From the IMG/VR virus record IMGVR_UViG_3300033146_003955, positions 1 through 64,000 of that record: 64,000 nt of DNA, one strand, 5' to 3'. Positions 1-55,981 of this stretch are shown in pieces. Each line of letters begins with the position of its first letter. Positions within the stretch are counted from its first letter, which is position 1. A model generated the notes under the pieces. The model was not told the DNA's origin and made no database searches. It saw only the letters and a list, made by a program, of their open reading frames with translations. Origin of the DNA: a virus. The position numbers and the translations under genes are program-made.

Positions 1-68
1 AATATTTTGTAAAGAATAAAAAGTATGAATTATATGTAATTATCTTTAAACTAATTAAAGATAATTAT

Positions 69-305
69 ATGAAATTATTAACTGTAGAATTACGCAATTG
101 TAATCAAGACAATCTCATCTCATACAGAAAGCAATGTATAGCCACATCTCACTTTATTAATGAAGACGGGTCACAAATCAAAATAGATTTCGAATATCAT
201 ATTGAAATGGATGCTCTTAATAAAAAAACAATAACAATAATATCTGATAATCCTCATGTTGAAAAACAACTAAAGAAATGGGTAAAGGAGAATGTAAAAT
301 TATGA
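69..305 (+). CDS. Hypothetical protein, apparently leaderless
   Basis: 78-aa ORF; AAGATA at 58-63 five nt before the ATG, no SD; its 5' end is duplicated at 3143-3210. Confidence 0.6.
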   Translation: MKLLTVELRNCNQDNLISYRKQCIATSHFINEDGSQIKIDFEYHIEMDALNKKTITIISDNPHVEKQLKKWVKENVKL

Positions 306-1018
306 AAATAATACAAAAACTTCTAACTAAGAATGTTTGGTCTCGCCCTGGAAGAGTGGAAGACATTAAACCTATAAAAGCTATAGTTTTACATTGGCTA
401 GCTATGCCTCGTGGTACACCTACTGGTGTTTACAAATTCTTTGAAACTAGAAAGAAAGGTAAATCTGGTTATGGTTCTGCTCATTATTGTATTGGTATGG
501 ATGGTGATGGTCTTCAATATATTCCAGACAATGAAATGGCTTATCATGTAGGTAGTAAGGTATATACAGATTTTGGACTCTCACTCTCATCATACCCTAA
601 TAATTGTACTATAGGTATTGAAATGTCACACTTAAACTGGGAGGGCGAATTCACCGATGAAACTTGGGAATCAACTAAAAAATTAACAGCTCTTCTGTTG
701 ATGCAACATAATTTAACAGCGGAAGATATAACAACCCATATGAAAATTGTAGGTTGGAAAGATTGTCCCAGATGGTTTAAGATATTCCCAGAAGAATTAG
801 ATAGATTTAAAGGGGAAGTTAGAAAACTTTTAGTTCAAGGTATTAAGGGTGAAGTAACTGCTACATTTTTAAACGTTAGAGATGGAATAGGCGGTAAAAA
901 GTTAGGCAGTTTAAAAAAAGGAAACAAAATTACATTATTAGGCATCTATAACGGATGGTATAAAGTTGAATTTGGTAAAGAGAAAGGTTGGTGCTATTCT
1001 AAATATATAAAATTATAA
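302..1018 (+). CDS. Endolysin: N-acetylmuramoyl-L-alanine amidase (Amidase_2/PGRP fold) with C-terminal SH3b domain
   Basis: IVLHW, SAHY, AYHVG, TIGIE, H...KDCP Zn-amidase motifs; C-terminal LNVR...GWYKV...GW SH3b; GGAG SD favours ATG 302 over 278. Confidence 0.9.
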   Translation: MKIIQKLLTKNVWSRPGRVEDIKPIKAIVLHWLAMPRGTPTGVYKFFETRKKGKSGYGSAHYCIGMDGDGLQYIPDNEMAYHVGSKVYTDFGLSLSSYPNNCTIGIEMSHLNWEGEFTDETWESTKKLTALLLMQHNLTAEDITTHMKIVGWKDCPRWFKIFPEELDRFKGEVRKLLVQGIKGEVTATFLNVRDGIGGKKLGSLKKGNKITLLGIYNGWYKVEFGKEKGWCYSKYIKL

Positions 1019-1020
1019 TA

Positions 1021-1134
1021 TGGAATAAAGGCAATTGGGAAAAAGGTTATATTTATAATCCAAAAACTGGTAAACATGAATTTAGTAAATTACCACCTAA
1101 CAAATGTAAATGGAGCTTATCATATGAACAATAA
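1021..1134 (+). pseudogene. C-terminal remnant of a third W-x-x-G-x repeat gene
   Basis: Reads WNKGNWEKGYIYNPKTGKHEFSKLPPNKCKWSLSYEQ*, matching the C-termini of the next two genes, with no start codon. Confidence 0.75.
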
Positions 1135-1612
1135 AGATTTAATAAAAACTATATTTACTCATCCTTATATAAACAAAAAATTATGGATATTCAAAGCTGA
1201 TGTAGATTGGAGTAAAACTGAGGTTGAAATAGATAAAGATGATGATAATTATATAAAATGGAAAAATGGTCAATGGAATAATGGTACTTGGAACGATGGA
1301 GTTTGGTATAATGGTTATTGGTATGATGGTACTTGGCAAGATGGTGAATGGTATGATGGTTATTGGATGAATGGTACATGGCAAAATGGTAATTGGCAAA
1401 ATGGTAGTTGGAATAATGGTACATGGCATGATGGAGTTTGGAAATCTGGTAGTTGGTATGATGGTATTTGGGAAAATGGTACTTGGTTAAATGGTACATG
1501 GCATGAAGGAACTTGGTTAAAAAGTAAAATTTATAATCCAAAAACTGGTAAACATGAACTTAGTAATTTACCACCTAATGAATGTAAATGGAGCTTAAGT
1601 TATGGACAATAA
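1124..1612 (+). CDS. Trp-rich pentapeptide (W-x-x-G-x)18 repeat protein, probable beta-solenoid
   Basis: 18 tandem repeats; GGAG SD before ATG 1124; paralog of 1602..2168. Confidence 0.8.
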   Translation: MNNKDLIKTIFTHPYINKKLWIFKADVDWSKTEVEIDKDDDNYIKWKNGQWNNGTWNDGVWYNGYWYDGTWQDGEWYDGYWMNGTWQNGNWQNGSWNNGTWHDGVWKSGSWYDGIWENGTWLNGTWHEGTWLKSKIYNPKTGKHELSNLPPNECKWSLSYGQ

Positions 1613-2168
1613 ACATAAATTAATTATTGATATTTTCGTTCATCCATATATAGATAAAAAATTATGGATATTTAAAGCTAATACTGATTGGAATAAGACT
1701 GAAGTTGAAATAGATAAAGATGATAATAAATATATAGTATGGAATAATGGTATATGGAATAATGGTACATGGCAAGATGGTTATTGGTATTTTGGCACTT
1801 GGCATGGTGGTACATGGTATGATGGTGACTGGGGTGATGGTATTTGGCATAATGGTAATTGGTATGATGGTTATTGGATGAATGGTACATGGCAAGATGG
1901 TACTTGGGAAAATGGTTTTTGGTATAATGGTACATGGAAGAATGGAGTTTGGAAATATGGCACTTGGCAGGATGGTGCATGGTATGATGGTAAATGGATG
2001 AATGGTAGTTGGGAAGATGGCACATGGATGAATGGTAGTTGGCATGATGGAACTTGGATTAATGGTATTTGGATAAAAGGCAATATTTATAATCCCAAAA
2101 CAAACAAATATGAACCTAGCATAGTATCGCCTAATAAGTGCAAATGGAGCTTATCATATGGAAGATAA
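1602..2168 (+). CDS. Trp-rich pentapeptide (W-x-x-G-x)23 repeat protein
   Basis: 23 tandem repeats; near-identical N- and C-terminal caps to the upstream paralog. Confidence 0.8.
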   Translation: MDNKHKLIIDIFVHPYIDKKLWIFKANTDWNKTEVEIDKDDNKYIVWNNGIWNNGTWQDGYWYFGTWHGGTWYDGDWGDGIWHNGNWYDGYWMNGTWQDGTWENGFWYNGTWKNGVWKYGTWQDGAWYDGKWMNGSWEDGTWMNGSWHDGTWINGIWIKGNIYNPKTNKYEPSIVSPNKCKWSLSYGR

Positions 2169-2475
2169 TATATTAAATAAATTTTTTCATTCGTATGATA
2201 AATCTATAGATAGTGATAAATATTTATATAATCAAATTGATTATGTTATATCAGAAGCACCTAAAAAAAATAAAATTATAAAACATTACATTTATATAGT
2301 TTATGATTTAGATGATAATTTATGTGTTGGTCCATATCTAGACGCTATAGATACCTTTTTATCATCAACAAAAATATCTTCTTCAGTATTAGATGATAAA
2401 ATTAAATACTCTTTTATTAAATATATTTTTGATAATGTAGACAAAATAAATAAAGTAATTAATAAATGGAATTAA
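2158..2475 (+). CDS. Hypothetical protein (IxxIF motif FIKYIF)
   Basis: Overlapping start with GGAG SD in the same junction sequence as the repeat genes. Confidence 0.6.
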   Translation: MEDNILNKFFHSYDKSIDSDKYLYNQIDYVISEAPKKNKIIKHYIYIVYDLDDNLCVGPYLDAIDTFLSSTKISSSVLDDKIKYSFIKYIFDNVDKINKVINKWN

Positions 2476-2641
2476 TATAATCATTCTTTTTGGTTGTTTT
2501 AGTAAATTATATAAATGTAAAGATAGAAAATAATCATTATGAAATAATTAAGCCTATAATAGGAATAATGTAAAATAGATTCAATGATTAAATAATTTTG
2601 AAATATATAAAAATTTCGATACAATAATTAATGATATAAAT

Positions 2642-3055
2642 TTGTTAAAAGAGTACGCTTCATTATATCTTATAATTGATTTTATACAGAAAAGCTTTTA
2701 TAATAAATATACAACTTTTGATAAATTATGGAAAGAATTGATAATAAGAGATCCAGAACCAGAGTTTAGAGTTATAATGAGAGATGCAATACCTTACGCT
2801 GAAAAAGGCAATTATAAAAAAGCTCTTGAACTGATGAAAACTCCGGATCACCAAGTACAAAAAATGATTGATATAGGATATACAGATATAGAAATAATAC
2901 ATAAAATATTGTTAAGTTATTATTTTTATAAAATGAAGTTAGAATATAGAAACAATATTGATGTTTTAAAAACGTATAATATTTTAAATAATTATATAAA
3001 TAACAATATAGAATCATTTAACAATTATTTGCGCACTAAGATTAATACTCATTAA
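2642..3055 (+). CDS. Hypothetical protein
   Basis: 137-aa ORF, TTG start, start uncertain. Confidence 0.45.
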   Translation: MLKEYASLYLIIDFIQKSFYNKYTTFDKLWKELIIRDPEPEFRVIMRDAIPYAEKGNYKKALELMKTPDHQVQKMIDIGYTDIEIIHKILLSYYFYKMKLEYRNNIDVLKTYNILNNYINNNIESFNNYLRTKINTH

Positions 3056-3085
3056 AAGTAACAAAATAATTATAATTTTTTTCAT
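3014..3085 (-). pseudogene. Truncated secreted-protein gene (signal peptide only)
   Basis: AAGGAG SD then MKKIIIILLLLMSINLSAQIIVK*; same promoter type as the lipoprotein at 27355. Confidence 0.55.
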
Positions 3086-3104
3086 TTCTACTCCTTGATA
3101 ATAT

Positions 3105-3135
3105 AATTATACCATATTTAATCAATTATCCAAAA
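3105..3135 (-). promoter_or_regulatory. Sigma70-like promoter TTTTGGATA...TGGTATAAT
   Basis: Near-identical elements at 27405-27435 (-) and 59243-59272 (+). Confidence 0.6.
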
Positions 3136-3153
3136 TTATATTAAGATAATAGT

Positions 3154-3222
3154 ATGAAATTATTAACTGTTGAGTTACGTAAATGTGACCAAGACAGCCT
3201 GATCACATATATAAAATTATAA
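3154..3222 (+). pseudogene. Deletion-fusion remnant of ORF 69 and the endolysin 3' end
   Basis: MKLLTVELRKCDQDSLIT joined to YIKL*; 22-nt identity of 3207-3228 with 1003-1024. Confidence 0.7.
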
Positions 3223-3296
3223 TATGGATATACTATCTCTTGAAGATGTAAAAAATATCTAATATACATCTTTGAAGTGTATAATTACTTTACGGA

Positions 3297-3548
3297 GTGA
3301 AAATGAAAGAATATATAGGTAAGTGGATACGTAAAAAGTCTTCGACTACAGTATATTACATATTAGGTGTAATCGGCGGGGAAGTAATAAGTATTATTAA
3401 AGACAACGCTTGGTCATCAAATATAGCTATATATATAAGAGATGTAAAAAGTTTCGATGATGTTATCGTAGAGAACGATATATCAAATAATTTTGACGAA
3501 AAAAAGGTTATAGAGCGTATATTTATAGATGCTGCATTCATATGGTGA
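3297..3548 (+). CDS. Hypothetical protein (KVIERIF motif)
   Basis: ORF with GGAG SD (probable start 3303). Confidence 0.6.
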   Translation: MKMKEYIGKWIRKKSSTTVYYILGVIGGEVISIIKDNAWSSNIAIYIRDVKSFDDVIVENDISNNFDEKKVIERIFIDAAFIW

Positions 3549-3610
3549 ACGCATATTCATTCTATGAAGAGTGTCTTCATCATATGAACGCTGGCGTTCA
3601 CGGGATGAAC
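3537..3610. repeat. Four tandem TTCA-N5-TGAA palindromes followed by an AT-rich tract
   Basis: Units start at 3537, 3556, 3576 and 3597. Confidence 0.7.
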
Positions 3611-3688
3611 CGATAAATATATAATAAATAGATCTTATATAAACATAATACTACTATAGGATTTTACATTATTATAGGAGTTTACATT

Positions 3689-4174
3689 ATGAGAAAAGAA
3701 GAAAAATTAATATCAGACTGCTTTACATATGATCTATATGATTATGTAAATCTTGAAGGTGAGAATATTAAACCTTATCTTGATATGGTTGAAAATTGGT
3801 TTGAAGTAAAACGCATTCTATTAGGCAATCCTATACGTGTTAATGGTAAGAATTATATACCTAAAAGATTTGATCTCCAAATGTTAGAAGTTGATGCAAT
3901 GATAGAATTGCTTGATGGTTCTATGCATTTCACTGGTGCAGTATATCTTAGAGGTTTTGATGATCCTATAGCTTTATTCATTGATACTAAAAATTTTAAA
4001 GTATATGATGTATCTGGAGCAAATATGGGAGGTCATGAAGATCTCCCTGAGGATTTTGAATTGTTAATGATTGATAATGATAAATTAATTGCATCCGTTA
4101 ATACAAAATCTATTCCCACAGGTCCTAATTCAACAGGAACAAAATATGGAAAAAGATACAAAGGAAGTATATAA
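3689..4174 (+). CDS. Hypothetical protein
   Basis: AGGAG SD; 161 aa. Confidence 0.7.
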   Translation: MRKEEKLISDCFTYDLYDYVNLEGENIKPYLDMVENWFEVKRILLGNPIRVNGKNYIPKRFDLQMLEVDAMIELLDGSMHFTGAVYLRGFDDPIALFIDTKNFKVYDVSGANMGGHEDLPEDFELLMIDNDKLIASVNTKSIPTGPNSTGTKYGKRYKGSI

Positions 4175-4473
4175 TGCATTGCGAATTATGGGCTTATGGT
4201 ACAAGATTAGTTGTAACTCCTCAAGATGGCGAATTTGGTTTAGTTATTGGATATGATCCATCTATGGAACAAATACCAGGTATGGATAGAGGTGGACCAT
4301 ATGCAGCTAAAGAATTAACTCTCCAAAGTGTCAATCATGACAGACCAGGTTTCGGTTGGAAGGAATACGGGTGGGATAAACTTCCGTTTAATATACCAAG
4401 CAAATACGCTTCGATTTTATTAACATTCCTATTTGACTATGGTAAATTTGTTGATAAGGTGAATAAAAAATGA
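4174..4473 (+). CDS. Hypothetical protein (ILLTFLF motif)
   Basis: TAATG coupling to the upstream gene. Confidence 0.6.
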   Translation: MHCELWAYGTRLVVTPQDGEFGLVIGYDPSMEQIPGMDRGGPYAAKELTLQSVNHDRPGFGWKEYGWDKLPFNIPSKYASILLTFLFDYGKFVDKVNKK

Positions 4474-4778
4474 TTGAATCCTTCTTTTGGTATAATCAAA
4501 AAACGAAAACATATCACTATACTCAAATAATAGAAGAAGTTGATACCAATATATTTAGAGTTTTAGAATTTATAATTTATGGCGATGTAATATATGAAAA
4601 TCATACAACATACGCAATCAATGCTATTGAGAGGCAAAAGGCCCTAAAGATTGAAAACATTGGATTTATTAAAGCTGTTATAGGTAATTTATTTGGCGAT
4701 GGAAAGTTTAAATATACTATTCTCAATGATACAGATGAAGCGAAAGGTGTGTACTCGGAGACTATATATGAAAGGTAA
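4470..4778 (+). CDS. Hypothetical protein, paralog of next ORF
   Basis: ATGA coupling; shares WY..Y.YT.I...V.E..I....I...HT.Y...LF...KF.Y pattern with the next ORF. Confidence 0.65.
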   Translation: MIESFFWYNQKTKTYHYTQIIEEVDTNIFRVLEFIIYGDVIYENHTTYAINAIERQKALKIENIGFIKAVIGNLFGDGKFKYTILNDTDEAKGVYSETIYER

Positions 4779-5076
4779 TATATACTGGTATGATATGCAA
4801 TTTTCTAATTATATATATACTGAAATTGTAGGTATGGATAGTGATGGATATGAGGTATATGAATATAAAATAAGTAAGGGTAATATACATGCCATACATA
4901 CGATATACAGTGAGAGTATGATAGATAGAGTAATTGATAAATCAGTTGATAGAAGGGGTGGTTTTAGAGATGCTTTTGCCATTCTATTTGATGCGCCAAA
5001 ATTTACTTATATTAAATTTGAAGACCTTGACGGTATATCAAATATAGATGTAGTAATAGATAGGACGGGAGATTAA
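4768..5076 (+). CDS. Hypothetical protein, paralog of previous ORF
   Basis: GGAG SD before ATG 4768 (ORF track start 4693 is probably too long). Confidence 0.65.
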   Translation: MKGNIYWYDMQFSNYIYTEIVGMDSDGYEVYEYKISKGNIHAIHTIYSESMIDRVIDKSVDRRGGFRDAFAILFDAPKFTYIKFEDLDGISNIDVVIDRTGD

Positions 5077-5685
5077 ATGTCAGAATCTCATAATCATGAA
5101 GTACTTAAACTCAAAGCAATTGAATTTTTGTACCAAGTGAAAAAGTGCAAACTCGTTGCAACAGAATTTTCTTTTGGACAGTATATCTACGATGTTATTG
5201 GAACTGACTTCAAACGTATTTATATAATAGAAGCTAAACAGGCTAAAGCGGATTTTAAAAGAGATTGCAATTCTCCGCAAGATATAAGAAAGAATGTTAA
5301 TGATTTTAAGAAACTTTTAAGAGAGAGTGGAGATACTAAATATATAGACCTAATAGCTAAGGAGAAAAGGAAGAGTACTAAATTTTATAATAAAGCTGTA
5401 TTTAAATTAGCTAACGAATGTTATATTATAGCTCCCGATGAATTAGTTGAAGAAGATGAAGTACCCCCGGAATGGGGACTCCTTAATGAAGAGCCAAGAA
5501 CCATAAAGAAATGTACCAATAGGAAGGTAGCAACTAAATGGATCACACGAGTTGTGGGAGAAATAGGGAAAAAACATACAAAATTGTACTTAAAAAGTAT
5601 AGGTGTTGAATTTCATGGAAGGAAGGTAATTTTCCCAGAACACTACCTTTTAGATAAAGATGAACAAATAAAGGAAGAAGAATAG
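5077..5685 (+). CDS. PD-(D/E)xK nuclease-fold protein (MmcB-like)
   Basis: H..LK..A, EF...YDVIG...IIEAKQAKADFKRD, and CYIIAP...E.P..WGLL pattern. Confidence 0.6.
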   Translation: MSESHNHEVLKLKAIEFLYQVKKCKLVATEFSFGQYIYDVIGTDFKRIYIIEAKQAKADFKRDCNSPQDIRKNVNDFKKLLRESGDTKYIDLIAKEKRKSTKFYNKAVFKLANECYIIAPDELVEEDEVPPEWGLLNEEPRTIKKCTNRKVATKWITRVVGEIGKKHTKLYLKSIGVEFHGRKVIFPEHYLLDKDEQIKEEE

Positions 5686-5933
5686 TGGTTGAGATGTTTA
5701 AGATATATAGAATACAGAGTAAAAATTATACAATCCCTATATATACTGAAAATTTTTATATTTATATAATTGAGGTACCAGGGAGTGTAGATTTAGCCTT
5801 GAAAGAGAAGGTTATTAGACGTCCTCCATACACAGATGATGTTAGTATCTATGAGACATCATTTGATAAACTTACAAATGGCCAAAGAATTAAAGTAATA
5901 GAAGCAGTATTCGGGAGTTTAAGATGGAAATGA
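5685..5933 (+). CDS. Hypothetical protein (KVIEAVF motif)
   Basis: Overlapping operon ORF. Confidence 0.55.
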   Translation: MVEMFKIYRIQSKNYTIPIYTENFYIYIIEVPGSVDLALKEKVIRRPPYTDDVSIYETSFDKLTNGQRIKVIEAVFGSLRWK

Positions 5934-6187
5934 GAAAAAGGATAACACAAACATTTGAACAATACGGATATGTTATGGTAGAATCATGTGAACCAGATAA
6001 TTCAGAATTATTAAATGATATTAAAACTTTTAATTTAGAATTTATAAATATGAATAATGGTTTTGATTGCTCTGAATATAAAATACAGGGTCTCCGCATG
6101 GATATTAAAGATATACTGAATATGCATTGGGGTAATAGTGAAGAGTATTTAGAAGAATTTGTAAATATTTCAAAGGGTGAAAAATGA
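5924..6187 (+). CDS. Hypothetical protein
   Basis: Overlapping operon ORF with SD. Confidence 0.55.
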   Translation: MEMRKRITQTFEQYGYVMVESCEPDNSELLNDIKTFNLEFINMNNGFDCSEYKIQGLRMDIKDILNMHWGNSEEYLEEFVNISKGEK

Positions 6188-6435
6188 TAGTTAGAAAACA
6201 AATAAAATATTTATTCTCTCACCCTAAAGAAGCTATGAGAAGTGGTTTATGGTTTTCTGGTGTGGAGAAGGAAGGTGAATTCAAACTCTGGTGGAATAAT
6301 GGTAATCTTAGAATGCACTATTTCTACAAAGATGGTAGAGAGCATGGTCCTTATAAAGAGTGGAATAGGAGTGGTAAATTAAGAGCATACGGTACATATA
6401 ACGAAGGCGAAATAGTTGAGGAGTTTTTAATATGA
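6184..6435 (+). CDS. MORN-variant repeat protein
   Basis: EGEFKLWWNNGNLR / HGPYKEWNRSGKLR repeats. Confidence 0.7.
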   Translation: MIVRKQIKYLFSHPKEAMRSGLWFSGVEKEGEFKLWWNNGNLRMHYFYKDGREHGPYKEWNRSGKLRAYGTYNEGEIVEEFLI

Positions 6436-6686
6436 CATATAGACAAGAGGCTATTGCAGATATATTTGCTTCATATACATTAGGTCTTACCAGAGGTTTT
6501 TGGCTTGATGAAATTGATCATGGAAAATATTTATATTATGGTGGTGGTATATTAAGAAAAGAATGTGAATATGATTACCTAGGTAATTTAGTAGGAGAGT
6601 ATAAAGCTTGGGATAATAAAGGTAGATTAACTATTCATCAAATATATAAAAATGGTAATGCAGTGAGGACATATGACACAGAATAA
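6432..6686 (+). CDS. MORN-variant repeat protein
   Basis: VGEYKAWDNKGRL...YKNG. Confidence 0.6.
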   Translation: MTYRQEAIADIFASYTLGLTRGFWLDEIDHGKYLYYGGGILRKECEYDYLGNLVGEYKAWDNKGRLTIHQIYKNGNAVRTYDTE

Positions 6687-6900
6687 TTTAATGTTTTGGA
6701 ATTGTTATGCGGAAGATGATTTTATAAACATTCCAGTGAGACAGGAGAATAATTATATTATTTATTATATGTTAGATAAACATAATATTCATGTTAGACG
6801 TTCAAATTTAGATGAACCTTGGGATTCTAATGATATTATAGAAGATAATAAAGTTATTACGTATATATTCGAAAGTAAGTTTACAAGTTTTATACAATGA
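6673..6900 (+). CDS. Hypothetical protein (KVITYIF motif)
   Basis: GAGG SD, overlapping ORF. Confidence 0.55.
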   Translation: MTQNNLMFWNCYAEDDFINIPVRQENNYIIYYMLDKHNIHVRRSNLDEPWDSNDIIEDNKVITYIFESKFTSFIQ

Positions 6901-7448
6901 CTCTTCCGGATCGACTTTTATTTGGTCAATTTTTAATAGATAATAAAAAAACATCACCAGCTATTTTAGAAAAAGCGTTAGAAATTCAGAAGATTGAACA
7001 TATGAGTGATACGCCTAGAATGCTTGGTAATATCCTTCTTAATGATTTTAAAACCTTTAAGGATAGGGTGGAACTACAACATTGTTTAAGAGATTTTGAT
7101 ACTTTCCAATTGGAAATGAAAAATATATTTCTTGAGGCTAAAAAGTATGGTGCGGACCCTGTAGACAAATTGCAGCAAGAATATGCAGATCTCTTAGAAG
7201 AGTTGGAAGCTGCACCAACAGCTAAAATACGTGAAGCAATAATAAGAATTGAGAAATTCAGAGTTGATATTAAAAGTGTTAAACGTCTCAAAAAAGAGAA
7301 TGAAACGCTTATAAAAGATAATGAGGCTAAATACTATGAAATAGAAAAGTTAAAATATAAGGTGGAATCATTAAATAATAATCTTAAGAAAAAAGATAAT
7401 AGTATTAAGAAATATGAACGTTTTTTACGAGATAAAGGTTGGGGATAA
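6897..7448 (+). CDS. MshEN-like (c-di-GMP-binding) domain plus coiled coil
   Basis: RLLFGQFLI.....S...LEKALEIQ followed by RMLGNILL......ELQHCL, two tandem MshEN-like motifs. Confidence 0.55.
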   Translation: MTLPDRLLFGQFLIDNKKTSPAILEKALEIQKIEHMSDTPRMLGNILLNDFKTFKDRVELQHCLRDFDTFQLEMKNIFLEAKKYGADPVDKLQQEYADLLEELEAAPTAKIREAIIRIEKFRVDIKSVKRLKKENETLIKDNEAKYYEIEKLKYKVESLNNNLKKKDNSIKKYERFLRDKGWG

Positions 7449-9089
7449 TGGTTAAATATTATAAAACATATTCAGAAGAAGATCAATATCTTTTATATGA
7501 CTTTAATAATGATTACGGTTTCTTTTTTAATAAATGGGGCGTTTTTGGATATACAGAAGGACAAAGTTATTTGTGTGATTTGAATGTTTCTTTTGACGAC
7601 TTTTATATTAATTTTGAGAAATCTATTGAAAGTAAACGGAAATCTAAAGCCCAAAGAAAATTGTTGAAGAGTATAATATGATTTTTGAAATATGTGAGGT
7701 ATATGGAGATTTAGTAATTAAACTGTATAATTTGTTACCGCAAAGTGATGTGCATGGCCATGGTTTTTGGTTTGGTTCAAGTCATATGTGGTCTTATACT
7801 GGTTTAGGTGTCGGCGGCGAAAAGTATAGCGAAGACGAAGTTGATCCTAATTTTCTAAAAGCAGCATTAGTAGAGTTATTCGAGCAAGATGATATGCAGC
7901 GATTGATAAATGATTTTTATGCATTTGAGGCTAAAAAATGAAGTTGAGTAATATAGAAATAGGTGATATAATAATTACTAAATATTCTAAACCACAAAGT
8001 GGTATAGCGGGTCATGCCTATATACATCTTTATAACGAAAAGTTTCTTCATGTGGCTAGTATTGATGCTTATGAAGATTGGCATGAAATGCTTAGTAATT
8101 TTTCTTATGTATGGGATCAGTTAACTACGTCTCATAGTATAGAGAAAGGAACAGTAGAGAAAGTGACTAAGCGAAAATTACATATAGCTGTTATGAAAAT
8201 ATTTGAACCAACGAGAGTTAAATGAAATTAAGAGATTTAAAGCCTGGTACTGTATTTATGTTAACTGTTAACACTTATAACAGGTTAAATAAGTTTGCAC
8301 TTTCTCGTTGTCTATATGAGAGAAATATAGGTACAAAATCTATAGTGTGGATATGGGTGGCTAATAGTAGTCAAAAAGTTCATAGACTTTCACTTGGCAA
8401 CAATACTTTAGTAAAAGAGATATTGAAAGAACATTATGTTCAGAAATTAATTGATATATTATTTAAGTCAGGTTTATACACAGATTATTATGTAAAAGAT
8501 GAAGAAATTGATTTCCGGGAAGGAAGATAGTATATGGTATATGTAAAAATAAAAGACATCCCGGATGGTACGTTCTTTGATTATGACATTGAGAAAGCAA
8601 GAATTAAATTTGGTGCCGTTTGTAGCACTAGAGACATATTTTTTAAAATGGGTGAACATGATAAGAATAATTGTAGAGTAATACACTTTACTCAACGATG
8701 GGGGGTGCAATGGAAGTATCTATGGGTAAACAAACTAAAGTGTATAAATCACGGAGAGATAATCTCTCACATACAGTTATTGAAAGAATATTCATGGATA
8801 AATATAATTATAGCGTGAGTAGAGGACTTCAATGAATTGGAAATATGATACATGGTATAAAGAAAAAACTAAAGCTGTTACAGATTGGAGTTATTCTATA
8901 TTTCTCGACCTCTATGGCAAAGTTTTCATAATAACAGTAAATCCTTACAGTGTTAGAACCTTCCAATATAATAAAGATGAATTCATCCCAGATGATGATA
9001 TTGATCACGAAGTTACAAGTCAACATGATTTGATATGGCTCAATAGAATATCTTCAAGTGGTTTATTTATTGATTGGGAAAAACTATAA
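7439..9089 (+). CDS. Run of six small hypothetical genes (7439-7681, 7678-7941, 7938-8225, 8222-8530, 8534-8818, 8832-9089)
   Basis: ATGA-type overlaps or short gaps; most carry a C-terminal hIxxIF-like helix. Confidence 0.6.
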
Positions 9090-9155
9090 CAATAACATAT
9101 AATCTTACAAGATAACTTTAAATACTCAAATTGCTGCAAAGCAAATCTTAAGGAA

Positions 9156-9596
9156 TTGAGAATGGAGTTCAAAAAAGTACTGAATGAATCGTATCCCAGA
9201 TATACTCTACGCTATAAAAGCGTCAATCCAGGATATGAATTGCATGATAGTAAACCTTACATAATTGCTCTTGATCAGAAGTATAACACTGACGATAAGG
9301 GTTCCTCCATTCTAGCTTTAAACCTAAATTACCACGACGGAAACGTCGAAGACCTGATAGACCAAATAAATGCATTTGATAACGCTTCGGGGTTTAAAGG
9401 TTTTGAAGGGAAATTGAGCGTTAAAAAATTTCTCAAACAGAAAAATGTAGAAGAGTATGAGGTTAGGAAAAGAAAAAAACGTTATAACGAATTAATAGCA
9501 CAATTTCCTTTCCTTAAGAAATATATTAGAAGGTATAAATATAGCGGACCTAAAGGTACTGGTATCCAGAGTAAGAACCGGAGATTTAAGAAATGA
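9156..9596 (+). CDS. Possible T4 gp2-like DNA end protector
   Basis: D..PYII...ILALNLNY and terminal IRRY resemble gp2-family motifs; N-terminal VLNE; AAGATA at 9109. Confidence 0.4.
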   Translation: MRMEFKKVLNESYPRYTLRYKSVNPGYELHDSKPYIIALDQKYNTDDKGSSILALNLNYHDGNVEDLIDQINAFDNASGFKGFEGKLSVKKFLKQKNVEEYEVRKRKKRYNELIAQFPFLKKYIRRYKYSGPKGTGIQSKNRRFKK

Positions 9597-9930
9597 CAAC
9601 GCTGCAAGAGATAAACGATGTAAATATATATATATTCGCTTTTATTCGAAGAATAATTGTCACATCTATTTTGATGCCGGGGAGGTAAGTAGTATAACTA
9701 ATGGTGGTGGGACATTTACTTGGGCAGAGCAATGGATAATAAATATTGATACTTCCACAATTAAAGTTACTCGTGGAAGTAGATGGCCAAATGATAATGG
9801 TAATACATATTCATGGCAAAATATATATGTAGATGATGATTTGATGAAGAGAATGCTAGTTGCAATTGAAAAAAATGATAATAAAAATAGAGAATTTATA
9901 AAAAATATATTTAAGTATGATGGGAAATAG
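9593..9930 (+). pseudogene. Small gene frameshifted at an (AT)6 tract
   Basis: Removing one AT at 9624-9635 gives an intact ~111-aa ORF ending NREFIKNIFKYDGK*. Confidence 0.6.
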
Positions 9931-10236
9931 ATGAAAGTAAGGGGAACAAATTTTCCAATTTTCGGTTTCAAGGTAAGCAAAAAGAATTGGTCATGTATAG
10001 ATTTTATAGATAGATATGGAAAGGATCAATTTGTTGTTTTATTAAGAGTAGCTTATGGTTATAGCGATAAAGGCGTTTTTTATACACCGAATGGACTATC
10101 TAACATCCCAATAAGTAGGTCAACATTTACTAAATATAAAGATGTTAATACATACTTGCATAAAGATGTTCAACACTATATTGTAAGATCAATATTTAAT
10201 GATAAAAGTGAAAAGAAAATAAAGGAATTGAAATGA
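9931..10236 (+). CDS. Hypothetical protein (YIVRSIF motif)
   Basis: Operon ORF. Confidence 0.6.
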   Translation: MKVRGTNFPIFGFKVSKKNWSCIDFIDRYGKDQFVVLLRVAYGYSDKGVFYTPNGLSNIPISRSTFTKYKDVNTYLHKDVQHYIVRSIFNDKSEKKIKELK

Positions 10237-10559
10237 ACATAAATAAATATAAATTACCGAATTTCTTTATTAAAAAGTTGGAAAAATATCGTTCTCACTC
10301 ATCAGACTACATTTATGATGGTAATATATTTTATGTTGATGGCTTTGACGATACGGTTACAGTAAAATTCACTATTAGTATAAACTTCCCAGGTGAGAAG
10401 ACTTTAGCAAGAAATAGTTCAAAAGTTTATAGCAAGGAAACATTTAATAAAATATTTTATCATATAAATAGGTTAGACAATTGGAAGAAATATAGTGTAA
10501 TAGAAACAATATTTAATAAGGAATCAGCAGAAGTCTTAAGGAGTATAAATGATATTTGA
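10233..10559 (+). CDS. Hypothetical protein (SVIETIF motif)
   Basis: AAGGA SD, ATGA overlap. Confidence 0.6.
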   Translation: MNINKYKLPNFFIKKLEKYRSHSSDYIYDGNIFYVDGFDDTVTVKFTISINFPGEKTLARNSSKVYSKETFNKIFYHINRLDNWKKYSVIETIFNKESAEVLRSINDI

Positions 10560-10902
10560 TGGAGTATTAAATTCTATAAACGAAGCTACTCAAGAGACTG
10601 TAACCCTCCTAAATAAAATGGAAGAGTATTTTGATAATGGTGGATTTATGGAACTTTATCCTAAAATGAGGAAGAGAATAGATTCTGTTCGTAGAGAAAA
10701 TTATTTATATAAGAAAAAAAGTGGCAATTGGTTTGCTCTTCTTATAATATTAAAAAGTCGTCTTTATGACGAAGATAAAGAAGATGTAGTAGAAGTGATA
10801 AAAGATTTAGAAATTATAAAAGATAATAAATGCAAGGTTGAAAGAAACAATATTATTATTAAAATATTGTTAAAAGATATAATTGCAGTGAAGGGGGCAT
10901 AA
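10549..10902 (+). CDS. Hypothetical protein
   Basis: AAGGAG SD. Confidence 0.6.
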   Translation: MIFDGVLNSINEATQETVTLLNKMEEYFDNGGFMELYPKMRKRIDSVRRENYLYKKKSGNWFALLIILKSRLYDEDKEDVVEVIKDLEIIKDNKCKVERNNIIIKILLKDIIAVKGA

Positions 10903-10903
10903 A

Positions 10904-13900
10904 TTGGCACGTGTTAAAAAATGGTCTAGTGGAACAATCGGTAATGAATATCCCGACCATAGTGAAAGAGGTAATCCAAATACTAGTGGTTTGACCATAG
11001 AAGGTATTCCAGGCATTGAAGGATATATAGAAGAAGACCGTGTTATTGCTTATGAAGATAATCGTCCTTTAATTAATCTATCACAAAACGATCAAGTTCT
11101 AGAATCCAATCTTGCGTCAGTAGCATCTGAAGTAGATTATGGTGTTTTAAGGGGTGCTAACGAAGAATTTAAAGTTGAAGTATTTAACCAAAAAGGTTTT
11201 TATTCCGACCCAGATGGCGGGGATGATCTAATTGAAATAACACCTCTCAGAATTACAGCAGGACAATCAATCATTGACGGACAAGTTGTTGGTGTTGGTA
11301 ATCAAAAAATTATTTATTTTCTTAAAGATGATGGCTCTTATCTTTTTCCTAAATATGAAGATTACGAAGGTAATACAGTAATATCTGTTACAGATGATTT
11401 GTATAGGGGTGTATATAAACCAGTATATGATATTGTATCAGATGGTTTGCCAACTAATTTTGAAGATTATGAAATTAAAATTACTAATGAATATGATACA
11501 GATCCAACAAGAATACAATATTTTAAAGTTTATAGAAATTGGGAAGATATAATTCCTTTTCCGCCACAATCAAGTAATGTTGAAGGTGAAATAAATTTCA
11601 TTTATGATGAAAATTTTGGTCAAAATTCAGAAGGTCTTTGGCTTGAAGGTATATTGCCAGAAGGCGGTAGTATTGATAATGTTAAGGTCAGTGATGTAGT
11701 TGTTAAAAAAAATATTACAGTAAAAGATAAATTTCTTCCATTAGATAAGTTTATTGAAAATGGCGGAACATATGAACAATATATTATAACAGATGGTATT
11801 TTCTTCGACAATGTGCCTTGGAAAACTGAAATACAAGAAAACAAAGAAGTACAAGATCTTTATGTAACAGATAACGGAGATATATATTTTATTTATAAAT
11901 CTGATGGTACAGGTAATGATTATCTTTATTACCTTCCAAAAGGTTCAATACAAGTATCAAATAAATATTTGTCAAACACAAGTAATCAATATATCACTAA
12001 AATTATAGAAATAAATAATTTTATTTATATATTAGGTACTAATGGTTATTTTGCTACATTTGATTTAATAATTCAACCAGACGATATAAAAAAATATGAT
12101 TATTTTTCTACTATAAGTGAAAATTTTACTGATATAATACAATGGAAATATAAAATCTGGATTTCTACAGATAAAAATCTTTATATTTTAGATGGTGATA
12201 ATTCGGGAGCAGAAGACGCATTTAATCTTTGCGAAATAATTAATGTTGGGACTGAATTAGATACAATATCTAACACTACAAATCTATTAAATAAAATTAA
12301 TAAATTAAATATTGTTGAGGGTAATTTCTTTGTTGACTCATCATTAAAAAATGATATTAAAAATTATATAAAAAATCCATCATTTGAAAAAGGTGGATTA
12401 GGTCTTACTCCAACTTATTGGGACGTCGTGGGAACTGGTACTTTTGTTGTTTCTTCTTCTTTAGATGCCAAATATGGTGAATATAAAGCAGTATTGGAAA
12501 ACACTGACACACTTTTAGAGACTTTTCAAACTTTTGATATTAATTGCGAAACCGACCAAAAGTTTATTTTTTCTGTATATTTAAAATCCGTTAATGATAT
12601 TGATGTTATACTAAAAACTGAAGGGTTTGATCTTGATGGAATATTAATTAATTCTATTTATACAACAGTAACTATTACTGGTGGTGAAGATTGGACTCGA
12701 TTTAATAATATTCCGTACATAGCAGCTGAAGGTATTAAAACGGTAAAAGTTTCAATTATATTAGAATCGGTCGGAACTATTCAGGTTGATGCTGCTCAAT
12801 TTGAATTTGGTGATATATCTAATCAATTTGTAAATGGATTTGAATATCTTATGATTGGTTTTGAAAAAAATTTAAGCGATGTATCAAATCCTCCATTTGC
12901 TTTTATAGATAGCAAAAGAATAGATGCAATAAATTATCCAACTGGAATTTATGGTGAAATAAAAACAATTAATGATATTACTGCTATGGGTAACAATGAA
13001 ATATATTTTATTGATAATAATAGTATTTATTCACTTATTGTTCTCAACGATGAGGATGAATATTCTAGAATATCTATAAAAAATATATCTGATGAATACG
13101 AAGATTTAAATTTAAAAACTAAAATAGAAAAACTTAATACTATTACAACTTTTGATAATAGAATTTTCTTCGGTGGTAATATATTAAATAAAAGTATATC
13201 ATTTCATACAGAGGACTTTACAGAAAACCATGAAATAACTATATTAGACCCAACTGATTCTAGAGTTTTGGGAACAGGTGAATTAGAAATAAATGGTGTA
13301 TATTATAATATAACAAATATATTAGGAGAACCAACATATATAAAACAGCATGAAGAAGTTGCTTCTATGATTGAGTTCCCTAGAATAGAAGAAATCTATG
13401 AAATAGATGAAAACGCTATAAATACTACTGGTGTATACGTGCCAGGAGCAAATTATTTACTTGCTATACAAATTGATAATAACGAACCTATAATAATTAT
13501 TATTGAAATGCCTCCGCAAAATGAAGGCCCTATAAGTGTCCAAGAAATATACAATAAAATAATAGATGCATATACAGATTCAGTTATAGTTTTTAATATA
13601 GCCTATTCAAATAAAAAAGTTGAAGGTTTATATTCTATTGGTAAAAATAGTCTCACTCGTTATATCCGTGGTAATATAAATAAAATATTTAAGCAATTAA
13701 ATATTGATAAACAAAGTCATTATGATAAAGGTTTTTATATTATACGTGAAGATTCAATACTTCGTTCTAAATATGATACTAATGTTAAAAAAATTGGCGA
13801 TGATTATGCGACTCTTCCTACAATTGTAGGAGAAGTTGAAAATATAACTTTACTTCCTATATCGGCAAATATAAATGATGTTATACACGTTTTAGACTTT

Positions 13901-19900: not shown

Positions 19901-21406
19901 CAAGAATTAATAGATAGAGCTAATGCAGATACTCTTATCCGAAATGATTTAACTCTTTATACCGATAATGCTATTGATGATTTAGCTGGTACTGGTAGAA
20001 TAGCACAAACAATAAAAAGTAATTGGGACCTCATTCAAACAAATATAATTGCAATTTCAGATTTAACAACTGCATCTGGTACTTTGTTGGCAGAACAAAA
20101 TAAAATCAAAGATGGTCTAGATGGTACAACTTGGGTTGACACAATGAATCTCTTTGCTCATAATAATAGACTTGATGCGACTGAAAGCGCAACTGGTACT
20201 AACACTACTAATATAGGTATTAACGCAACTGATATAAGTACTAATGCGGATGATATAGATTTGTTAGAAGGCAGAGCAACAACATTGGAAACTAACTTAG
20301 GGCAGGAAGTGATTGACAGAGGAAACGCTGACACACTTATTCGAAGTGACCTTGCTTCATCAGCGAACGCTCTCGGTGCTTCGCTTATAGGTATTGAAGA
20401 TGTTGCCGGTAGTTATGTTGCTATAAATGTTGAAGATGCTCTCGCTGAAATTGATTCCAAGCTTCAAGCACTTGTTGGTTCCCTTTCTTGGAAAGCTTCG
20501 GTGGCCGATGTTGTCTCTCTTCCTACAGTTGATAATAACTTAGGTGATGCAAGAACTGTTATGGATGATGGCGACGGTAAAGCTGCACAATATATATGGG
20601 ATGGCTCTTCTTGGATTAAAGTAGCAGATATAGATTGGGGTTCATCCTCAGATATAAGTCATGACCCAGTAAATTCAGGTCTTTTAGCAACAACAGTTAA
20701 AGGTGCTATTGATGAGTTGTATGCTCGTTCTGCCGCACCTAACAATTCAGAAGTAGAAGTTACAACAGTAGATTGGATTCCAGATTCTGGTAATTATTAT
20801 GTAGATATATTACATGAACTTGGAACAACAAATATATCTATAAGAGCTGTTGATGCATCTGGCATGGAAGTTGGTGTTGAAGAGTATGAAAGATTAAATA
20901 ACGATACAGTAAGAGTGTGGGTACCAGCTCCAACGGATACAACATTTACCATCTTCGGCGCAAACAATTCATACTCAAAATTAATTGGCTCTTGGACTCT
21001 CTCTGGTGGAATGTATTTAAAGGATATCGTTCATAACTTCGGTACGCAACAAATCATGATATCAGCATTTAACATCATGACTGGTGAACTAATAGGAATG
21101 AATAGTGTTGAAATAATTGATGATAATGCTATACGTATTATGACGGATAATAATTCAGATGTTATTAACGTATTCATTTTAAACAAAACAAGTGATGCTA
21201 AAACTAAAGATTTAGAATACTGGGTACCAAATAACGGTATGTATGAATGTATTTTACCGCTCGCAGTTGATTATGACGCTGTATACTCCTTTTTTGACCC
21301 AATAACAAACAAAACGGTTGGTGTTGACACGGTTAAGTTTGAAAGTGGAATGTTGAAAATTGTAAAAACTAACAATACACCATTAAGAATGGTAGTGCTG
21401 AGATAA
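10904..21406 (+). CDS. Giant 3500-aa virion structural protein (tail/baseplate/fibre-like)
   Basis: Repeated N-h-h-x-N-x-x-F-E...Q(F/L)E CBM-like modules, LamG-like and beta-helix-like segments, long heptad coiled coil, LP..GD..Y.WDG..W module, repeated C-terminal beta modules; TTG start with GGGGG SD. Confidence 0.7.
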   Translation: MARVKKWSSGTIGNEYPDHSERGNPNTSGLTIEGIPGIEGYIEEDRVIAYEDNRPLINLSQNDQVLESNLASVASEVDYGVLRGANEEFKVEVFNQKGFYSDPDGGDDLIEITPLRITAGQSIIDGQVVGVGNQKIIYFLKDDGSYLFPKYEDYEGNTVISVTDDLYRGVYKPVYDIVSDGLPTNFEDYEIKITNEYDTDPTRIQYFKVYRNWEDIIPFPPQSSNVEGEINFIYDENFGQNSEGLWLEGILPEGGSIDNVKVSDVVVKKNITVKDKFLPLDKFIENGGTYEQYIITDGIFFDNVPWKTEIQENKEVQDLYVTDNGDIYFIYKSDGTGNDYLYYLPKGSIQVSNKYLSNTSNQYITKIIEINNFIYILGTNGYFATFDLIIQPDDIKKYDYFSTISENFTDIIQWKYKIWISTDKNLYILDGDNSGAEDAFNLCEIINVGTELDTISNTTNLLNKINKLNIVEGNFFVDSSLKNDIKNYIKNPSFEKGGLGLTPTYWDVVGTGTFVVSSSLDAKYGEYKAVLENTDTLLETFQTFDINCETDQKFIFSVYLKSVNDIDVILKTEGFDLDGILINSIYTTVTITGGEDWTRFNNIPYIAAEGIKTVKVSIILESVGTIQVDAAQFEFGDISNQFVNGFEYLMIGFEKNLSDVSNPPFAFIDSKRIDAINYPTGIYGEIKTINDITAMGNNEIYFIDNNSIYSLIVLNDEDEYSRISIKNISDEYEDLNLKTKIEKLNTITTFDNRIFFGGNILNKSISFHTEDFTENHEITILDPTDSRVLGTGELEINGVYYNITNILGEPTYIKQHEEVASMIEFPRIEEIYEIDENAINTTGVYVPGANYLLAIQIDNNEPIIIIIEMPPQNEGPISVQEIYNKIIDAYTDSVIVFNIAYSNKKVEGLYSIGKNSLTRYIRGNINKIFKQLNIDKQSHYDKGFYIIREDSILRSKYDTNVKKIGDDYATLPTIVGEVENITLLPISANINDVIHVLDFGYYKWDGNSWIDTQYIYKWTLYDTDYELREFKNKYNQLITFSDDALNKNWVDLSITSGYKLTPGSLRVKTNVDTEIGFSENEDYFVDYENGKIIRSTLVNYLKDSNFEFVDILTDWQKYINTSSSGEINLEKRIESFTSFENEENVLGSYASLFITSSSTDNGAIYQIVTPTSLNVGDTYTFSVSLKTNKFKESKIRISECTNSNTDDFTNTLPGSELEYRIFDEDADPYNTWKRYVISHTITDVTSTKLRVEIHTDTDSIEQLFIKEAQLERNQIVTPYVRTNINSRLDAGAPVWVDYTETRTLTVGSDYSFDIENRKVILYNEPLEDTQLYFDYKYEKIFNPKIYGTSIPKFEITYDDRDDYFLYLYEGRIWAINLVLALLSQDEDNPLIINYNYHYPRIDKIKIRNIPDIYGNYIYIVKGKQDSINPYGPYDKGTQRLTHVQEVDRNEIENTKSNEMLYEINVLDNDYNNNDIYDRRIFIESRDHRYFNISLYDQTVGYMPFTKDFMSTSGMNPINKLNNSKIVDIIKNFDIKQLEEIGAWGSNYQLVLRNKLQYPATALSIFVDTDVYSDGTNKGSDTNSGVDKFNPLKTIKEAVRRIKEESAPPNIIVVSQSLIIEDIEINHIETINIFAETYARWKGNIQNITPLKMQGFIFENHNFYVVHELDLYYNTFKNCTVNNYIPTHIHFYNCEIDSGNNTFLYIKNILFPSPFLHPYQRNLNANDNVEGDPISVATEDLESIYPNVDSYNKLLVGNPSGDYRFERCLVNGLRDDFVRYDLTDEEPWISSFTFERSTIVKNANIFYTNKSSQNIIYNECILWENKEIRGTESKIFDSRSNITLQNCFIDFNSDESSDTINYNFNGDVYGRETCIDGSFNIEPGFISTQARFENYRLRSEAMGYLTDSINIGKATDGRDLGCYDELRERLDVEVPKKLKSYFAFIDEGIHYPIILNSEKITFTLEFKPSNSFNTPSVLFDTRSSADDKDYIMVVYNNNSGDKITDIEPDPTAEITDPYTFKIILVNEETKYVVVSPINMYSDADYQVWNTISFTANYEKTFNEKSTFDEKDKYQNIITFFHNEELAVESFLKNDLSYDDHNTILEGYNNDNTNAWNYNNISKFITISSSFDNKYILTGYYSELRIDNKFINRKELEAWNNKVVPFNDPITYIDQNNLARTFDSSIINELWTLKTKFDVGAKGHHFNELTNKRFTYDEGELIWVLTGPTENYLNNADLNESIFASVVTDIPPNNDTEDLFPIVFDHEMIIKTSGNTNFDSTTGIVVDFLDGGTQFYSHEELYVFLQNVLNDPVNVASKIQIELLTDKRFRISTNDYSAESISIEFKNDGDAEEFGFITPFTGNPPDPDDDYIVTQGIGYDGVGVSTIITGFKNINSIVITTGIVDTLSMEHNAWLEYGEQYTNLSPTSLGISRIITSNNDDTIEANDNNEDKYITILTHRKSSYEILSLYDETSIEPIEYTYSIYMYRRSNEFSQDDVKVVIIGDTLIEGIIEPDYQVEYEFDTIENIYGYWWKATKRIRILSDQSPDIGIIVKGELSFYIDAFQLEKGTFASPFVVDNNSNHGMLELDKALLKPDRGVIFFRFKPLFDYYTTEKKVLLEMLSSEEVNGVDVIDKTKGFRIWYKYNEEIQKGTIQFRTVKIEDDGDLPDDAAWEVVVLEQFFTNWHTIILSYDFNTKRFLYFFDYFKNAVDTGVNQYEFFTNLNIGSDIRGYETNGATIPEFSASADIMVKDVLITNYTTSDQELKNWINAHEFYKETLFNNLLDSYQHDMLDVIKSIENISVNTYDIEQNINLLNSRITSLDSIVDSATDIQLLKVRQDELRDEVFGSTSSILTNITDLDTARAAHNIRISTNSDSIAANNILIIENTNLIAQEVSDRINLINDLIVKLASTNLGDGASTIGVHDPNNKFTSTDVEAVLLEIEDRVSTNENGIANINNGVLGLQTEINQMQEGDGSTYEWTAAKAINNGWNIGSIRTDINQELIDRANADTLIRNDLTLYTDNAIDDLAGTGRIAQTIKSNWDLIQTNIIAISDLTTASGTLLAEQNKIKDGLDGTTWVDTMNLFAHNNRLDATESATGTNTTNIGINATDISTNADDIDLLEGRATTLETNLGQEVIDRGNADTLIRSDLASSANALGASLIGIEDVAGSYVAINVEDALAEIDSKLQALVGSLSWKASVADVVSLPTVDNNLGDARTVMDDGDGKAAQYIWDGSSWIKVADIDWGSSSDISHDPVNSGLLATTVKGAIDELYARSAAPNNSEVEVTTVDWIPDSGNYYVDILHELGTTNISIRAVDASGMEVGVEEYERLNNDTVRVWVPAPTDTTFTIFGANNSYSKLIGSWTLSGGMYLKDIVHNFGTQQIMISAFNIMTGELIGMNSVEIIDDNAIRIMTDNNSDVINVFILNKTSDAKTKDLEYWVPNNGMYECILPLAVDYDAVYSFFDPITNKTVGVDTVKFESGMLKIVKTNNTPLRMVVLR

Positions 21407-21651
21407 TGATATTATTTATGAACAGTAAAGTATTTGGCAGTAATAGATGGTTATTTGGTAAAGGTAATGTAGTTGAAAAGAACGGAGATGTTTATCAAAT
21501 AGATATTGATTGGATAATTGGCAACAGTGAAGCTGCTGAAAATACTCAAGGTCAATTTCATAAAGAATATGTATATGAAGAAAAAGACTTCGACAAAGAA
21601 AAAATAGTAATTGATTTATTATTTACTAGTAAAGAGATTTATAAATTTTAA
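21406..21651 (+). CDS. Small hypothetical protein (KIVIDLLF motif)
   Basis: TAATG coupling to the giant gene. Confidence 0.55.
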   Translation: MILFMNSKVFGSNRWLFGKGNVVEKNGDVYQIDIDWIIGNSEAAENTQGQFHKEYVYEEKDFDKEKIVIDLLFTSKEIYKF

Positions 21652-55723: not shown

Positions 55724-55981
55724 ATGATATATTTCACACCGGAGTTGTATACTTTCTATTCATATGGAATTAATTATGAAACTCGTTACTATTATCACTT
55801 TGATGAGAGTATTGACGTTTGGTATTATTTAATTTATGAAAATGGTCGTATAATTAGAAGCCATGAATTTGATAAATTTCTTCGTCTTCGTTATGATGAT
55901 CACGATAAAATTGATTATGACCCCTCCAATAAAATATGTCATGAATTTTTTCAATTTGTATTTAGATTCGAAGGATTATAA
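55724..55981 (+). CDS. Hypothetical protein, leaderless, with IxxIF-like motif
   Basis: AAGATA 4 nt before ATG; HEFFQFVF. Confidence 0.55.
   Translation: MIYFTPELYTFYSYGINYETRYYYHFDESIDVWYYLIYENGRIIRSHEFDKFLRLRYDDHDKIDYDPSNKICHEFFQFVFRFEGL

Follow-up and report, generated by a model that had tools for sequence, protein, structure and literature searches.

In phage T4, the capsid targeting sequence is an N-terminal peptide of about 10 residues, and the prohead protease cuts after its Glu. E. coli MinD has a tail with the residues F-L-K-R-L-F near the C-terminus, and clamp-binding peptides take the form Q-x-x-h-x-x-a-a (the PIP box) or, in bacteria, QL[SD]LF. In poxviruses, ankyrin proteins with a C-terminal PRANC/F-box-like domain are fast-diverging paralogs, often in tandem near the genome ends, whose constant end contacts one host machine. 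Large phages spend much of their coding capacity on small ORFans that lie beyond homology annotation. Here we describe a short terminal peptide, hIxxIF, on small proteins of a contig from an uncultured large phage, IMG/VR virus record IMGVR_UViG_3300033146_003955, of which positions 1 to 64,000 make up the window. We found that this peptide is a specific, directional motif selected at the protein level on proteins that cannot otherwise be aligned, in this contig and in two diverged relatives. An earlier interpretation made from the letters of the window (the sequence-only reading) had noticed the motif and proposed a portable docking or sorting tag on unrelated folds; its observation was partly confirmed, and its interpretation is partly supported.

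The contig (G000; 158,812 bp, 31% G+C, about 80% complete) was annotated with a simple custom codon-score gene caller, which gave 205–210 genes and 92–94% coding for the whole contig. Most copies of the motif in the window fall in a cluster of 26 tightly packed plus-strand genes (1076–10559), mostly with overlapping stop and start codons. Homologs of a 202-aa protein in this cluster (5077–5685) led to two related phage contigs, G002 (388 kb) and G003 (178 kb), which were fetched whole; a conserved neighboring enzyme shows 45–48% identity between the three genomes. The motif was defined by the strict pattern [ILVMAF][ILVM]xx[ILV]F, and the last 32 residues were taken as the C-terminal zone. Per-protein shuffles, the reversed motif, Phe swaps, out-of-frame open reading frames (ORFs), codon usage and phage T4 served as controls.

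The C-terminal motif was confirmed to occur far beyond chance. The cluster contained 15 strict matches, one per protein, compared with 2.3±1.4 in per-protein shuffles, and 11 of the 15 were located within the last 32 residues, where 0.6±0.7 were expected. Proteins longer than 200 aa of G000, in the set used for this count, were depleted in the motif (9 matches vs 24 expected). For proteins of up to 130 aa, the C-terminal zone held 18 matches in G000 (2.4 expected) and, with the pattern fixed beforehand, 46 in G002 (8.2±2.7) and 13 in G003 (3.2±1.7). Pooled over the three genomes, this amounts to 77 matches against 13.5 (z=18), and about 15% of the small proteins of G000 and its distant relatives carry the motif. 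Similarly, a position-specific scoring matrix trained on G002 and G003 only found 12 C-terminal sites of at least 8 bits in G000, where 0.36 were expected. Small genes beside the conserved 202-aa protein in distant relatives end in VIEAIF, VIRSIF, VIKIIF, FIKTIF and ILKEIF, among others. Every copy listed in the sequence-only reading is present in the gene named there, and the terminal enrichment over composition-shuffled sequences that it had anticipated was borne out at the C-terminus.

Because the genome is AT-rich, with Ile, Phe and Lys common, and the pattern is loose, the motif might be thought a by-product of composition, a DNA-level signal or the result of miscalled ORFs. We regard this explanation as barely credible, since all controls contradict it. 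Reversing the motif leaves its composition and periodicity unchanged, and this control gave 18 matches vs 13.8 expected in the pooled C-termini, i.e., no excess. When the final Phe was replaced by Leu, Ile, Val, Met, Tyr or Trp, counts were near expectation, again with no excess, and Phe accounted for about 85% of the summed excess among the hh..hX patterns tested. Out-of-frame ORFs that are not genes showed none either (179 vs 161±12), and T4, scanned identically, had one match vs 3.5 expected, so that the motif is not enriched there. Synonymous codons at the motif positions followed genome usage (p=0.35, 0.97, 0.55 and 0.14). As codon usage is ordinary and an out-of-frame excess is absent, selection acts on the peptide and not on DNA. 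A promoter or recombination site was ruled out by the codon usage and the variable distance to the stop codon, and an intergenic k-mer scan for promoters gave nothing useful.

The strict motif was not enriched at the N-terminus (17 vs 14.4 pooled; 1 vs 0.49 with the matrix). The only credible N-terminal copies are those of a pair of W-repeat proteins and of the MORN proteins 6184 and 6432. KLISDCF (gene 3689) and KRITQTF (gene 5924) scored below 6 bits, which was treated as chance level, and the general class of N-terminal copies in the sequence-only reading did not hold up.

Alignment of the 77 C-terminal instances gave [K/R/H/Q](-2)-x-h(0)-I(1)-[K, or E/D in G000](2)-x-[I/L/V](4)-F(5)-[E/K/N](6). 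Among the positions not fixed by the pattern, -2 (K/R/H/Q) carried 1.1 bits, +2 (K) 0.73 and +6 (polar) 0.55; upstream of -2 nothing exceeded 0.24 bits, the highest being a hydrophobic residue at -8. Since the information is confined to positions -2 to +6, the conserved unit is about nine residues long. It ends 0–24 residues before the end of the protein (median 6), in most cases within 0–14 residues of the stop.

A terminal peptide shared by many small proteins could be a virion sorting signal, analogous to the T4 capsid targeting sequence as the sequence-only reading had suggested, or a degron for timed protease removal. The phage also has a MoxR/peptidase/vWA operon a short way past the end of the window, and the N-terminus of its vWA protein reads ILKKLF, which would agree with such a role. 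The T4 signal is likewise a short terminal peptide common to different small phage proteins, but it is N-terminal and cleaved, whereas the motif described here is mostly C-terminal (77 copies vs 17 N-terminal), occurs on about 15% of small proteins and has no constant cleavage context such as an h-x-Glu prohead-protease site at its close (position +6 was E in 17, K in 13 and N in 13 of the 77 instances). A carboxylate-anchored degron is ruled out because the distance to the protein end varies. In position and cleavage context the capsid-loading analogy does not hold up, and sorting or timed removal appears improbable. Besides, the MinD helix has a C-terminal amphipathic pattern, h-h-+-x-h-F, which the motif shares, and a membrane-targeting helix of this type would keep the miniproteins at the inner membrane. 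Basic residues are indeed common at -2, -1 and +2, and an amphipathic helix lies near the C-terminus (residues 78–88 in the model of 7938–8225). However, the net charge of the window from -5 to +10 was near zero (means 0.2–0.7) and negative in 23 of 76 instances, position +2 in G000 was mostly Glu or Asp with +6/+7 often acidic, and the hydrophobic face comprises just four residues. Unlike the MinD helix, the helix is not consistently cationic, and it is modeled confidently beside a folded barrel, directly after it, which makes membrane targeting quite improbable. The clamp-binding peptides resemble the motif in their terminal location and hydrophobic-Phe ending, and their spacing can be overlaid on Q-x-x-I-x-x-I-F. 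The PIP box has a conserved Gln three residues before its first hydrophobic anchor, which is not a constant feature here (-2 was Q in 10 of 77, K, R and H being dominant). Within the roughly 80% of the genome that G000 covers, searches for PolA, PolB, DnaN (PF00712) and gp45 (PF02916) gave no match; the gp45 search carries little weight, as it matched no control genome either. A clamp-client role for 15% of the small proteins is implausible.

The proteins that carry the motif (carriers) are highly diverged. All fetched DNA yielded 93 carriers, which formed 87 BLAST families, 79 of them singletons. After removal of the helix, the mean Smith–Waterman z between bodies was 0.21 for carrier–carrier and 0.20 for carrier–other comparisons (p=0.46); bodies that differ this much in sequence may still have a fold in common. 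Deep searches with three carrier families found 0–2 homologs each. For example, 2158–2475 had no relative among 1.84 billion representatives, the 7938 family had orthologs only in G002 (with AMKYIL) and G003 (with AIKHIF at the very end), and 10233–10559 had a single homolog with 83% identity and AVKAIF at the motif site. This was also the one pair from which conservation of the site across orthologs could be read: five adjacent residues differ (S-VIET to Y-AVKA), four of them within the six-residue motif, and the pattern and the Ile-Phe are kept. Because carriers are otherwise unalignable, the motif is held by selection.

In composition and arrangement, carriers are more alike. In each of the three genomes, their bodies had a clearly higher beta propensity than the remaining small proteins (p=0.002, 3e-7 and 0.015; pooled 6e-11), with Tyr, Pro, Asn, Ile, Ser and Val enriched and Ala, Glu and Gln scarce. 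Carrier lengths were less spread than those of non-carriers (Levene p=0.0009), and in G002 adjacent carrier pairs were more numerous than expected (13 vs 3.7; in G000, 4 vs 1.5). Three paralog pairs were found in the window (1076/1602, 4470/4768 and 6184/6432). This clustering, the similar sizes and the beta-rich bodies suggest local duplication of one structural class and not a tag on arbitrary folds. The sequence-only reading had called the carriers otherwise unrelated, which is right with regard to sequence, apart from the three paralog pairs, and less apt with regard to their shared beta-rich make-up. Among larger proteins ending in the motif, 8 of 10 had no Pfam family. One of the ten, 46758–47390, is an 8-oxoguanine DNA glycosylase (Ogg-HhH, E 5e-55) that G002 and G003 conserve as well; its ALDFVF, which directly follows the domain match and is conserved in all three genomes, was judged not to be such a tag.

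Two carriers had usable alignments for AlphaFold2, 7938–8225 (three members) and the MORN protein 6184–6435 (18 paralogs), and the motif was helical in both models. The model of 7938–8225 (mean predicted local distance difference test score, pLDDT, 84) places six strands within the first 70 residues, followed by a final helix (78–88), which holds AVMKI with Phe89 at its end (pLDDT 86–89); the tail beyond is disordered. Its barrel weakly resembles Sm/SH3-like barrels (Z 5.3, root-mean-square deviation 2.8 Å over 63 residues of 1n9r_A, model range 3–73), and Foldseek found nothing for this model at E<=0.001. For 8222–8530, the ESM Atlas's own model, which is of low confidence (predicted template modeling score, pTM, 0.57), matched the SH3-like barrels of FeoA and ribosomal L2 (TM 0.52–0.56), whereas the Atlas model of 2158–2475 was too poor for use (pTM 0.28). 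At least the 7938 and 8222 proteins thus look like small beta-barrels in these models. The argument of the sequence-only reading that different folds speak against paralogy is not borne out: C-terminal carriers are beta-rich and often adjacent, and at least two of them are predicted to be barrel-like.

These models raise a real, though minority, possibility that the motif is purely structural. All C-terminal carriers would then descend from one beta-barrel-plus-helix miniprotein and the motif would be its closing helix, packed against the protein's own barrel, with no outside reader. The confident last helix after the barrel of 7938–8225, the SH3-like model of 8222–8530, a further full-length candidate of the 7938 family found by hhalign (probability 51%), the beta-rich bodies, narrow lengths and adjacency, and the frequent hydrophobic residue at -8 all agree with this explanation. 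On the other hand, the surface on which the helix packs must have drifted as well, yet Phe has not been swapped for Leu, Ile, Met or Tyr, and the polar positions -2, +2 and +6 remain conserved. The same motif also heads MORN and W-repeat proteins N-terminally, the Sm-like alignment (residues 1–73) leaves the helix outside, and bodies without the helix show no detectable similarity above that to non-carriers, which does not favor a single paralogous superfamily.

We tentatively favor a different explanation, a constant contact helix on a fast-diverging, locally duplicated class of miniproteins. On this view, the motif would form the hydrophobic side of a short alpha-helix at the protein end. 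Carrier genes would multiply by local duplication and their bodies would drift past recognition, while the helix would be held by selection because it touches something unchanging. This could be one common partner, from either the phage or the host, or, in self-association, the equivalent helix of a sister subunit. As Phe and the polar positions have been kept while the bodies drifted, packing on a changing body is unlikely and a constant contact is favored; a binding peptide for one hub protein, which the sequence-only reading had also offered, fits this explanation. The existence of a constant partner is something that we infer, and several observations weigh against this explanation. The helix of 7938–8225 is modeled with the same confidence as the barrel, which suggests that it packs on its own body and is perhaps not free to dock. 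Clustering, similar sizes and beta-rich bodies would likewise follow if the motif were no more than a structural signature within a single hyper-diverged family. Finally, the statistics of the window itself are circular because the pattern was first drawn from it, and independent data are limited to the genome counts with the fixed pattern, the T4 count and the cross-trained matrix.

A short peptide kept while the bodies change provides a rare handle on the ORFan small proteins of large phages. The motif unites about 15% of this clade's small proteins in one functional class and gives a concrete bait for a partner search. Should a reader exist, the arrangement would parallel in phages the adaptor families of large eukaryotic viruses, in which a variable body is joined to a constant handle; unlike the PRANC domain, which has a known partner, the constant part here is about nine residues, and the bodies can no longer be aligned. 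Even a helix with a structural role alone would delimit a very large, hyper-diverged class of miniproteins and correct the portable-tag reading.

The MORN proteins carry the motif at the other end. The protein 6184–6435 matched MORN_2 (PF07661) with 30.1 bits, compared with a gathering cut-off of 29.6 (E 3.7e-7), and its AlphaFold2 model (pLDDT 92) has a leader consisting of a helix (2–12), a Pro turn and a second helix, after which the MORN sheet follows; among the 18 paralogs, Q6 and F11 do not vary. MORN structures align to this model only from residue 15–20 on (Z 5.1–5.3), so that the leader helix is left outside. When the MORN leader alignment was compared with the W-repeat protein by hhalign, the two leaders were not matched to each other (probability 6%), and the MORN leader and the W-repeat N-terminus are alike at the level of the motif only. 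The W-repeat pair itself (1076–2168) consists of two paralogs made almost wholly of five-residue G-x-W repeats (NGTWQ DGEWY and so on); they have relatives in neither G002 nor G003, and nothing beyond a weak PHROG hit.

The MORN family has 35 members in two subfamilies, whose N-termini read MKYIAREQIKxLFxNPQ and MTIDQEAKxLLLREE, respectively. Because QIKxLF and EAKxLL stand at the same place, the same repeat body carries either leader. Paralogs with the two alternative leaders are located in the window (6184–6686) and beyond it at 73020–73412, 80557–80898 and 80882–81313 of G000, and tandem arrays in G002 comprise about 22 genes with the QIKxLF leader and 7 with EAKxLL. AKxLL is enriched in these genomes in its own right, with 27 N-terminal and 27 C-terminal copies vs 0.3–0.4 expected. 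It resembles hIxxIF in the genomes and the kind of carrier in which it is found and in its i/i+3/i+4 spacing (A-K-x-L-L vs I-K-x-I-F), but it is placed equally at both ends, whereas hIxxIF is almost only C-terminal. The two motifs are nearly mutually exclusive, only one protein carrying both, and their genes occupy different parts of G000 (hIxxIF at 2–21 and 118–126 kb, plus one at 153 kb; AKxLL at 55–92, 129–132 and 153–156 kb). Besides, hIxxIF bodies are more beta-rich than AKxLL bodies (p=0.006), and the two carrier sets are distinct classes. A two-label system, in which two isomorphic terminal helices would mark two segregated, fast-evolving miniprotein sets, each with its own receptor, and a leader swap would redirect variable bodies such as MORN, is conceivable but unlikely.

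Table 1. Copies of the terminal motif in the window. Coordinates are those of the motif itself; the positions in the sequence-only reading were gene starts. Matrix scores are in bits.
Motif	Coordinates	Strand	Placement	Gene	Matrix score	Remarks
LIKTIF	1139..1156	+	N-terminal	1076-1612 (178 aa)	16.9	W-repeat protein; 60% identity to 1602-2168
LIIDIF	1620..1637	+	N-terminal	1602-2168 (188 aa)	9.8	W-repeat protein
FIKYIF	2413..2430	+	C-terminal	2158-2475 (105 aa)	15.6	14 residues before end
VIERIF	3507..3524	+	C-terminal	3297-3548 (83 aa)	10.5	
LLTFLF	4417..4434	+	C-terminal	4174-4473 (99 aa)		
VIGNLF	4677..4694	+		4470-4778 (102 aa)		27 residues before end; paralog of 4768-5076 (E 2e-6)
AFAILF	4972..4989	+		4768-5076 (102 aa)		Variant, fails strict pattern; homologous position in paralog 4470-4778
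VIEAVF	5895..5912	+	C-terminal	5685-5933 (82 aa)	8.6	
QIKYLF	6199..6216	+	N-terminal	6184-6435 (83 aa)		MORN protein; leader helix
AIADIF	6450..6467	+	N-terminal	6432-6686 (84 aa)	7.1	MORN-like protein
VITYIF	6853..6870	+	C-terminal	6673-6900 (75 aa)	9.4	
ALVELF	7864..7881	+	C-terminal	7678-7941 (87 aa)		
AVMKIF	8187..8204	+	C-terminal	7938-8225 (95 aa)		Modeled as small beta-barrel plus last helix
LIDILF	8447..8464	+	C-terminal	8222-8530 (102 aa)		
VIERIF	8776..8793	+		starting 8534		3' frame (8698-8835) of frame-split gene
FIKNIF	9895..9912	+		starting ATG 9593		3' frame
IVRSIF	10180..10197	+	C-terminal	9931-10236 (101 aa)	10.6	
VIETIF	10497..10514	+	C-terminal	10233-10559 (108 aa)	14.2	
VIDLLF	21607..21624	+	C-terminal	21406-21651		Outside cluster
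FFQFVF	55946..55963	+	C-terminal	55724-55981	8.1	Fails strict pattern

Two of the genes in Table 1 are interrupted. The carrier gene 8534–8835 is frame-split at a G6 run (8700–8705) into a 5' part (8534–8818) and a 3' part that contains TVIERIF and closes with the usual ATGA overlap onto the next gene; the split is either a homopolymer sequencing error or a genuine frameshift. The gene starting at ATG 9593, which overlaps the stop of 9156–9596, runs for 31 codons to a stop, and the frame beside it, which contains EFIKNIF, stays open to 9930, with the frame change near a TA run (9624–9635). Relatives carry another protein at the position of 9593–9930, which ends in VIKIIF. In the spacer 3056–3296, a 22-codon remnant (3154–3222; MKLLTVELRKCDQDSLITYIKL-stop) copies the N-terminus of gene 69–305.

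The cluster is preceded by an endolysin gene (278–1018) and followed by a protein of 3500 aa. No match was found by megablast of positions 1–12000 against cultured phages, and no related locus in a search with the N-terminal part of the 3500-aa protein. For the 26 cluster proteins, Pfam and PHROGs gave only the MORN_2 match of 6184 plus weak matches of 5077 and 1076. Literature searches and a comparative paper on jumbo phages (PMC7824862) yielded no account of a motif like this one.

The protein 5077–5685 (plus strand), by which the relatives were found, is a non-carrier and the only well-conserved protein in the cluster, with 41 homologs, the closer of which show 67–89% identity, and in every relative it sits among motif-bearing miniproteins. 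Its invariant Asp39, Glu52 and Lys54 in a D...E-x-K arrangement are suggestive of a candidate PD-(D/E)xK nuclease, and its weak PHROG hits include a "DNA repair protein" family. Two long proteins also begin with a copy of the motif: the 533-aa last protein of the MoxR/peptidase/vWA operon (67890–69491 of G000) with MSSILKKLFEE, and a 463-aa protein of G002 with MQLIKQLFSE.

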